From Amoebidium appalachense (Eukaryota; Protista; Ichthyosporea): a stretch of 64,000 nucleotides of DNA. Of this stretch, positions 387 through 3,300 are shown piece by piece. The DNA is taken from positions 8,660,334 through 8,724,333 of the forward strand of contig CAVNZM010000005.1 in the NCBI GenBank assembly GCA_963693365.1, read 5' to 3'. Both the position numbers and the translations under genes were made by a program. Numbering within the stretch: the first letter of the stretch is position 1; every line of letters begins with the position of its first letter. The notes below the pieces were generated by a model. The model was not told where the DNA came from, did no database searches, and was given only the letters and a program-made list of their open reading frames with translations.

Positions 387-3300
387 GAAGCAAGTATTTC
401 CATCATTCGGTCGGGTGGTAGGTTGATGGGCTTATCGGCACTGAAGGCAGAGGGAGGCTGTGTGTGTGTGTGTGTGTCAGCAAACACACGTGTATGATGC
501 ATGTCGGGGAGAGGTGTAGCAACGGTTAGGTCTTTATTGGCGATTTGGATTAAGGAGAAAATGACGTTGCGGGTGAAGGAGTGGTGAGGGTGTGTGTGTG
601 AGTGTGAGTGTGAGTGTGAGTGTGAGTGTGAGTGTGTGAGTGAGTGTGAGTGAGTGAGTGTGTGTGTGTGTGTGTGTGTGTGTGTGTGTGTGTGTGTGTG
701 TGTGTGTGTGTGTGTGTGTGTGTGTGTGCACACGCGCACTTGTTCTCCTTTTTTGTTTTTTATGTGGGGAGGGAAGGGGAGGGGGTGGGGGGAGGGGGGG
801 GGGGGGGGGGGGGGGGGGAGGGGGGAATGGGTGACATAAGCATTTAGGAATTGAAATTGTAAACTAGGAGACATTAAAAGACAAAACACGCCTCACAAAA
901 TTTAAAACAATCCCAGAGAGCAAACCTAGTGAAATGGTGGTGGTGGTGATGGTGCGTGCGTGAGCGCCCACGCGCGCGCGCGCGCGCGCGTGTGTGTGTG
1001 TGTGTGTGTATGTGTGTGTGTGTGTGTTTGGGGGAAGGGGGGGAGGAGGGGAGAATACTGACTGGGATGGATTTTTCGGCCGGGGAACTTTGTGGTTCTA
1101 TTTTGGGGGTGGAGAGGTTGGAGGAGGCGGAGGGGGCCTGTGGGTTCTTTTTCTTTGGCTCCAGAAATAGACTTCGGCTGTAGTGTTGGTCTTCGTCTGG
1201 TTGGAACTGTGTGTGTGTGTGTGTGTGTGTGTGTGTGTGTGTGTGTGTGTGTGTGTGTGTGTGTGTGTGTGTGTGTGTGTGTGTGTGTGTGTGTGTGTGT
1301 GTGTGGGTGTGGGTGTGTGTGTGCGTGCGCGGGCTAGTGTGCTTAAATATGAGTGCACACGTGTGTACGTGTGGGTGGGTGTTTAAAACCACTTACATAC
1401 ACGGGCGTGTGTGTGTGTGTGTGTGTGTGTGTGTGTGTGTGTGTGTGTGTGTGTGTGTGTGTGTGTGTGTGTGTGTGTGTGCGCGCGCGCGCGCGCGAGC
1501 GCACAGGCGAGTAAGAAATCGAGCGTGTATGCATCCGCATGAGCGTGGTTGTGCAAATCCATATGCGTGCATGTGTAAGCATTCGTGCGTGCGTGTCCAG
1601 TGATCGAGGTGGATAAGGATCGACAACGTTAGTACAAACTGTGAGATGAAAGAAGAAAGGGGGAATCGTTGCGGGGGGGGGGGGGGGGGTGATGTATGCG
1701 TTAGAGGGTTGGAAATATGGAGGAGACAACCAAGAGCAACAACAAAGCGTCACAAAAGTGGGAAACCCAAAATCAAGTAATTTAAGCGTGCAGGCAGAAG
1801 ACACTTGAACAGAGCCCATCATCAGGGGGGTTCCTATGCCTCCACAAAAGCATGGGTTTCGACTCCTTAACCTCTCGCGCATGGTTCCCAACCCATACTG
1901 TTTCAACAGCAATAGGCGAGTCCACCCGTCTTGGCCAAAGACGAGCAGGGTGGTTCAAGGAGCAGCAATCTAAGAAAACAGAGTCTACAAAACCTGCAAG
2001 CAGACAAAAACAAAGAAAACAAGCAGAGAAGTAGAGCATAAGCCGGGCTTCTACAAAGCTCCCCGACTTCCTAACCTATGGAGAAGGGGAGGGAGGGGGA
2101 GGGGGGGGGGGGGGGGGGGGGGGGGCAGAGGGGGTGGGGAAGGGGGGAAAAGGGGTGAGAGAGGGGGCGAAAAGGGAGGAGGGGAAAGGGGGGAAGACGG
2201 GGGACATGGAGATAGAGAGAAATAGAGGGGGACTTAACCTGGCCACTATTGTTTTTTTAGATGGTTACCCCACGTAATAAACCAATAGGTTTGACCCATG
2301 CCACTGGGGGCCAGTGCACCTGACCGGGTGGAACTTTAACGTGTTCGAACGGGTGGGCAGGGGGAGGGGGAGGAGGAGGGGGGGGGGGGGGGGGGGGATG
2401 GAGGGGATCTGGGAGGGGGGGGGGGGGGGGGGGGGGGATGGAGGGGATCTGGGAGGGGATGGGGGACGTGAGAGGACTGAAGGAGGGGCAAGACATACAC
2501 ATAAGACGGGGGAGTGAAAAAAAAAAGAAAAAAGAAAAAAGAAAAAAAAAAAAAAAAACGAACGAAAAACACAGATGGCAAAGCCCTCACAAAAATAGAG
2601 AGACGTGAAAGGAAGGAGGCACTTCAACAGAGCTCGTCTAGGCGGCAGCGGTGGGGGGGGGGGGGGGGGGAAGGGGGGAACGGAGGAAAATACTGTCTGT
2701 GGAAAGAAAAGATTGCATGTTTGTGTGTGTGTGTGTGTGTGTGTGTGTGTGTGTGTGTGTGTGTGTGTGTGTGTGTGTGTGTGTGTGTGTGTGTGTGTGT
2801 GTGTGTGTGTGTGTGTGCGTGTGCGTGTGCGCACGTGTGTGTAACGTGAATTGCATGTGTTTGTGTGTGTGTGTGTGTGTGTGTGTGTGTCTGTGTGCCT
2901 TTGTGTATGTGTCTGCATTTATGCGTGTGTATGTGTGTGCACATGTGTGCGTGTACACGTTTGTGTGCATGCGTGCCTGTGTCTGTCTACCTGTAGGTGC
3001 TGGAGGTATGTCTGCAGACTGAAGATGGGGCTGAAGGGGTAGGGCTCACTCTGAAGCCCAAGCACCTGCCCAACAACCTCGTCCGTCTGCGTGACATTAG
3101 AAATTAAAAAATTCATTAAATGTGACAGAAGGGGTAGGGCTCACTCTGAAGCCCAAGCACCTGCCCAACAACCTCGTCCGTCTGCGTGATATTAAATTTT
3201 AAATTTTTAAATAATGTGTTAAAAGTGATCATTAAAATAAATGTCAGACCTCGAGGCATGGAGAGGTTGTAATGTTAGGCGGATAAAACTGGCTATGGGT

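Follow-up and report, generated by a model that had tools for sequence, protein, structure and literature searches.

The 64,000-nucleotide stretch of Amoebidium appalachense DNA analysed here, referred to as the window, combines protein-coding genes with several kinds of repeats. Near its start, splice sites and Pfam matches delimit a GT-AG intron (1207..2990, minus strand) of a probable RasGEF gene, which contains in sense a copy of the RNA motif discussed below. The first-pass annotation had described this copy as sense within a RasGEF intron; the sense orientation and the GT-AG intron stand, but the two upstream exon pieces match RasGEF with E values of 0.004 and 0.005, below the Pfam cut-off. 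The start of a RasGEF exon and its acceptor are tandemly doubled (3186 and 3086, within 2987-3200, minus strand), leaving two acceptors on offer. HMG-box exons (Pfam PF00505) are found on both strands (22784-23125 and 55948-59488). An intact-looking Ngaro/PAT-type retrotransposon (30519-36208, minus strand), flanked by intronless GAPDH and class II aldolase genes, carries a 1,198-aa frame (31683-35279) with a reverse transcriptase domain (Pfam RVT_1, E = 1e-6) and what we take to be RNase H and tyrosine-recombinase motifs. Its split direct repeats pair 35745-36208 with 30837-31300 (464 bp, 100% identical) and 31298-31434 with 30519-30655. No other reverse transcriptase turned up in the 150 window frames scanned (of 155), and the element lacks the ribozyme motif. 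Another segment (37970-41513), within a CA microsatellite, is bounded by direct repeats of 481 bp that begin with TG, end with CA, are 99.6% identical and lie 3,063 bp apart; the frames scanned between them gave no Pfam match, and it is likely a young non-autonomous LTR element. The closest named matches of the aldolase are ichthyosporean, with 79% for Sphaeroforma arctica and 78% and 72% for two others, whose gene prefixes presumably denote Creolimax and Abeoforma. Exact matching of two window proteins yielded no record, and the ESM Atlas returned the aldolase family only.

The motif, 153-161 nt long, occurs three times: as copy A in the RasGEF intron (1804..1959, minus strand), and as copies B1 (52304..52456) and B2 (52748..52908) on the plus strand. 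All three were delineated by helix comparison, a structural descriptor and a three-row alignment (A2), and B2, judging also from family depth, is probably decayed. The minus strand at A aligns with B1 and B2 where the first-pass annotation had placed the similarity, with a local alignment score of 63 against the B element, whereas 200 shuffles averaged 19.6 and peaked at 37. Scores of 18 and 16 for the flanks are at background level, in keeping with the first-pass remark that these do not obviously align. However, the notion of one piece copied 50 kb away gives way to two repeat families, A and B, which share only the motif. The reading frame open in A meets stops in B1 and B2, as had been stated, which rules out conservation of the motif at the protein level. 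A covariance model built from the three copies matched only those copies in the window, the next score being 10 bits.

Both families are non-autonomous in appearance and bordered by runs of C. The family A element, non-coding and ~390 nt long, is present as a single copy between two C-runs (1692..2084, minus strand) and was also followed in contigs of the public runs X1 and X8. Family B forms a partial tandem between C-runs (52210..53021, plus strand), with a period of 443 bp and repeats 95% identical, likely made of a 5'-truncated copy (52210 to ~52574) and a whole unit (~52575-53021) whose ends we infer. Because three DNA runs contain the head-to-tail joint from 52652 to 52210, this joint gives no sign of circular RNA; no run on record as RNA contains the stretch. 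Many family B joints lead into C-runs at 52562-52576, and the 3' ends of A-family contigs are joined via a C-run to another copy with varying start points. The B unit was matched by 13,553 of 1,965,315 contigs in X1, 233 of 631,165 in X14, 18 in X13 and 7 in X17. Matches to A numbered 2,586 of 1,965,315 in X1, 2,766 of 3,337,194 in X8, 111 of 631,165 in X14 and 0 in X17, a zero that does not prove absence. From these counts, A and B are both high-copy families, and since A is just one insertion from a family represented by thousands of contigs, its position in the RasGEF intron looks incidental. The idea of a mobile or multicopy functional RNA is borne out in that both carriers are high-copy repeats whose motif retains its structure despite sequence change.

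High copy number, partial tandems and insertion at C-runs are traits of Penelope-type (Naiad/Chlamys) elements. A fourth such trait, 5' truncation, is suggested by the joints and by a depth that climbs from 5' to 3' in both families, both weak indications, as summed depth is not a copy number. Neither a Penelope-type reverse transcriptase nor a GIY-YIG domain was present among 150 of the 155 complex reading frames of at least 75 aa in the window. A third subfamily (record 26 of run X17, and X13; aligned on 52295-52339 and 52421-52465) has motif ends as in family B and other flanks, with the 81-nt interior of the motif replaced by 83 other letters. Pattern scans for homologs gave 33 + 13 loci in viral contigs, 120 in metagenome contigs (33 of 64 parts) and 35 in prokaryote genomes. 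None of these 201 loci passes the descriptor and their longest BLAST match is 41 nt, so that they are regarded as chance matches.

The helices recognised in the first-pass annotation all pair in the three copies, with 118 of 119 cells (99.2%) paired on alignment A2. Seven of 40 pairs are altered on both sides, compared with 0-1 when the partners are slid by 1-3 columns. As had been cautioned, this covariation draws on no more than two independent types of sequence, B1 being nearly a twin of B2. Helix a, which closes the motif (1959-1953 with 1810-1804), differs between A and B in both members of three of its seven pairs. Immediately inside it lie the 5' strand of the 3-bp helix b (CCC, 1950-1948, paired with 1817-1815) and hairpin c (1946-1924), which together span 1924..1950 on the minus strand; both are invariant between A and B1 and consequently draw no support from covariation. 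The hairpin had been called invariant, which holds between A and B1, but its loop-closing pair is lost in 28% of summed depth in X1 (52325). The helix given as GUAUGGGUU does pair, except that its final U-A 'pair' corresponds to the unpaired hammerhead positions H17 and A14. The segments GAAA and CUGA(U/G)GA are conserved as claimed and are the core words of the hammerhead ribozyme, while AAG is not, nearly all A-family contigs having AAA (1866).

The judgement that the RNA is not assignable to a known family has to be revised on this basis. Despite the absence of an Rfam match, GAAA, CUGA(U/G)GA and two helices around GUU make up a permuted hammerhead core; the interpretation as a mobile or multicopy functional RNA thus survives without its unassigned status. 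Copies A and B1 hold every core nucleotide, including the cleavage triplet GUU, and differ in the core at N7 (U in A, G in B1), whereas B2 has a G at H17. The blocks follow one another in the order S-G-C (cleavage site, GAAA, CUGAnGA), which is non-circular and corresponds to none of types I-III. In A (minus strand), descriptor and helices place block S at 1887..1899 (stem III strand 1899-1891, H17 = U1890, stem I strand 1889-1887) and block G at 1849..1865 (stem II strand 1865-1861, GAAA as G12-A15.1 at 1860-1857, then a stem III strand). Block C, also found by a simple pattern, lies at 1815..1828 (stem I strand 1828-1826, CUGAUGA 1825-1819, a U, and GGG of helix b at 1817-1815). The corresponding parts of B1 (plus strand) are an upstream stem II strand (52341-52345), H17 at U52377 (GUU), GAAA from 52409 and CUGAGGA (52435-52441). 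By analogy with known hammerheads, cleavage is predicted after GUU, between 1890 and 1889 in A and after U52377 in B1.

Stems I and III adjoin the core in register, with 3-4 bp and 9-10 bp, respectively, and with compensatory changes. Between A and B, stem III has two compensatory changes and one one-sided change. Stem I, only 3 bp in A, gains one further compensatory change in a manual registration (GGG/CCC vs GGAG/CUCC), at a place where the MAFFT alignment is gapped. An S-G-C descriptor with stem III of at least 5 bp and stem I of at least 3 bp, applied to both strands of the window, found three places, exactly A, B1 and B2, compared with 0.06 matches per window on 200 block-wise dinucleotide shuffles. 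A stricter version (stem III of 8 bp plus an upstream stem II of 5 bp) had no match in the 200 shuffles, and the simple pattern alone gave three matches where 0.08 were expected. Rfam returned nothing at the gathering threshold in the 64 kb, hammerhead models included, and at E values up to 10 only five weak, unrelated matches near A and none near B. The motif has neither the circular order C-G-S nor the model match that Rfam types I, II and III entail, and the published SGC RNAMotif pattern, re-implemented with N7 free, matched neither strand. Nested minimum-energy folds contain no hammerhead and their z-scores are weak (-0.6, -2.1 and -1.4), as expected for a pseudoknot, though this is no support for one. 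Group I or lariat-capping, HDV-like, twister and hairpin ribozyme folds, judged from their consensus features, lack both Rfam support and a fitting helix order. A classical hammerhead spanning two tandem units is inapplicable to A, which is a single copy.

Variation within the families largely spares this core. Among contigs of family B, eight motif positions vary, all of them in loops, linkers or terminal pairs; core nucleotides and the inner pairs of helices a, b, c, II, III and I are not among them. The common variants of family A, in the 40 of 59 rows listed, fall in loops and linkers or extend helices a and III. In B2, the G at H17 (52821) and one broken pair of helix b each account for less than 2% of depth in four runs, and B2 therefore looks decayed. 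One observation counts against an intact hammerhead: in run X14, guessed to be RNA, 45% of the depth at family A C3 reads U. A deep contig set of X14 (1816-1863) also carries core changes (C3, A14 and others), each below 1% in the DNA runs, and probably represents one decayed copy within well-covered sequence.

The main structural question concerns stem II. Two partners are conceivable for the strand before GAAA, one after CUGAnGA and the other 55-65 nt upstream, directly after hairpin c, and both models fit all three copies. The upstream strand (GACUC, 1918..1922 in A, minus strand) pairs with 1865-1861, just 5' of GAAA, with one of five pairs compensatory relative to B. In A, pairing with the strand after A9 amounts to -6.0 kcal/mol and with the upstream strand to -5.0, whereas in B the values are -5.1 and -8.7. 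A stem II that starts 0-1 nt after A9 does not form, so that either a 2-nt insert or the upstream strand is required. From sequence comparison, stem II is most likely made with the upstream strand (GACUC in A, GACCC in B). If so, the bases after A9 would pair with the 5' CCC in helix b, helix a would close the whole, and helices b and c would interrupt the core between A9 and G10.1. The 21-22 nt linker between stems I and II holds a small hairpin, h (1869..1886 in A, minus strand), weakly supported by one compensatory pair; its first pair, which is one of the eight variable positions, is broken in ~56% of B-family depth in X1 (52382).

The other partner of the strand before GAAA leads to a different explanation, which we consider unlikely: a type-SGC hammerhead that is ordinary but for 2 nt inserted after A9, in which stem II would use the GGCUC strand and the 5' domain (b, c and the upstream strand) would act as an off-switch until refolding. 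The required pairing is possible in all three copies (110 of 110 cells paired), its 6-bp stem II is slightly more stable in A than the upstream helix, and the A-family majority base at 1866 would convert its final G-U to A-U. One or two extra bases beside a hammerhead core are, moreover, known from the literature excerpts consulted. However, this stem II has no compensatory change and needs one or two G-U pairs, whereas the upstream strand co-varies with its partner, and helix b would have to be sacrificed.

A further point against this alternative, and in favor of the split core, comes from published Naiad elements. The available parts of Craig et al. 2021 (PMC8557442) describe Naiads as without a canonical hammerhead but flag 'HHR_core' or 'HHR_half_core' in 17 Naiad rows, the flagged cores fitting no descriptor. 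For Chlamys elements, the sister group of Naiads, they report truncated 5' ends, copies in partial tandem and a targeting of (C)n or (CA)n. Seven of the 39 places shown in our reading of those sequences (five Naiad-type and two Octopus) have b, c, II, S, G, C, b as their terminal arrangement; the others are coding sequence or have an ordinary core order. The seven comprise three Acropora, two Octopus and two other entries and fall into four distinct sequence groups, with the Octopus names deduced from how headers and table are ordered. The comparison was made by eye rather than by computed alignment, with search terms covering part of the possible sequences. Across these excerpts, helix order and core words are as in the window motif, and the strand of helix b and hairpin c occupy the same place. 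U-U mismatches at the foot of helix b are common to one entry and the window motif. In the seven entries the upstream strand contributes six standard pairs to stem II, apart from a mismatch in one Acropora entry, and what follows CUGAUGA is unable to form a stem II, leaving the upstream strand as the sole option. Thus, Naiad sequences of equal layout, as compared by eye, could not form the stem II of an ordinary type-SGC hammerhead.

As far as the published sequences go, the likeness is evidence that the architecture is a genuine fold that recurs, in the sense of a shared layout and not of shared sequence or proven descent. In the same excerpts, Naiads are elements of animals, autonomous, 3.4-4.4 kb long and with a (TA)n preference, while those in the window belong to a unicellular holozoan, an ichthyosporean, and are ~400 nt, non-coding and inserted at C-runs, a preference resembling that of Chlamys. 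Furthermore, the Naiad junctions shown have no spare bases and a linker of 0-5 nt, whereas the window elements add hairpin h. We did not find a split-core fold described in the consulted parts of PMC8557442, nor are Sphaeroforma or Creolimax named in the portions of its supplement available to us. The records returned when the literature was queried for ichthyosporean Penelope elements were all unrelated papers.

Taken together, these comparisons make it fairly probable, in our estimate, that the motif is a complete hammerhead core in S-G-C order, folded as a knotted hammerhead, split after A9 by two extra helices and predicted to cut the RNA that carries it. A9 would be joined to G10.1 via the junction of helix b, closed by helix a, and hairpin c. 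The carriers would be non-autonomous Penelope-type (Naiad/Chlamys-like) retroelements. One cut per unit would release ~444-nt monomers from tandem or read-through transcripts, and these monomers may then be copied into C-runs by a reverse transcriptase supplied from elsewhere. An active copy A could, on this model, also cut the RasGEF pre-mRNA, with no sign of selection for the site.

Next in order, and likewise unlikely, is a hammerhead-derived fold that does not cut alone, being slow or needing a protein or a second copy, and that is kept as a signal for reverse transcriptase binding or packaging. Hairpin c is identical letter for letter in two families that are unrelated otherwise, which suggests that something recognises it, and decayed copies such as B2 exist. 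Many Penelope-type hammerheads also cleave poorly in vitro, according to the consulted parts of PMC4209133. Against this, both families retain a cleavable GUU along with every catalytic position of the core, which would be needless for pure binding. That some other structured RNA or DNA signal bears hammerhead-like words by chance is very improbable, in spite of the short core words and the missing Rfam match to any model, hammerheads included, as words and flanking helices co-occur in the exact hammerhead geometry, expected by chance 0.06 times per window at the loosest setting and shared with the published Naiads excerpted above.

The split S-G-C hammerhead favored here can be set against two known systems. 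Type-SGC hammerheads (HRIMA-1 and variants) self-cleave at 0.007-0.19 per min in the data consulted from Eckert et al. 2023 (PMC10085705). In the same material, they agree with the window motif in block order, mutually crossing stems, core nucleotides, a cut after UH (predicted here) and a U after A9, the latter seen in the SGC-1 and SGC-2 oligos. In contrast, their stem II directly follows CUGAnGA(U)G, whereas here it most likely comes from upstream. The published search pattern, as far as it is reproduced there, allows linkers of 0-8 and 0-15 nt, with a longest RNA of 104 nt, compared with a 21-22 nt linker and 153-161 nt in the window. Block C is assumed in those passages (PMC10085705) to be uninterruptible, and here two extra helices would lie inside it. 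The supported rearranged ribozymes reported in these parts of the paper are all metatranscriptomic, while the window motif sits in genomic repeats.

The second system comprises non-LTR retrozymes and pLTR hammerheads. In the portions consulted of PMC4209133 and bioRxiv 10.64898/2026.07.22.740005, these resemble the present families as short, non-coding, high-copy tandem units with one hammerhead each and a proposed dependence on a Penelope-type reverse transcriptase. Their ribozymes, as presented there, are canonical or minimal type I, whereas the window motif is non-circularly permuted and, most likely, split. No split-core S-G-C hammerhead was found in the literature searched, a scope that does not extend to Weinberg 2015, cited for helix-bearing variants. 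The consulted portions of PMC3088659, PMC13725137, PMC10162972, PMC6765202 and bioRxiv 10.64898/2026.09.16.752053 contain no such form either.

It is important to consider which part of this picture is new. Hammerheads, the S-G-C order and hammerhead-bearing retrozymes are already known. What the sequences raise, with somewhat less than an even chance in our view of holding in full, is that an active split, non-circularly permuted hammerhead, not described in the literature searched, is the missing ribozyme of the Naiad/Chlamys clade, older than animals and present in high-copy retroelements of a unicellular holozoan. If so, it would overturn the stated premise of an inseparable CUGAnGA block and stem II, and it would be the first genomic, transposon-borne non-circularly permuted hammerhead within that literature. 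It would also explain why standard descriptors and Rfam overlook the ribozymes of Naiad-type elements. The two natural variants with competing stem II pairings would offer a cheap and sharp bench test. With a host outside animals, the design would be either ancient in Holozoa or horizontally moved.
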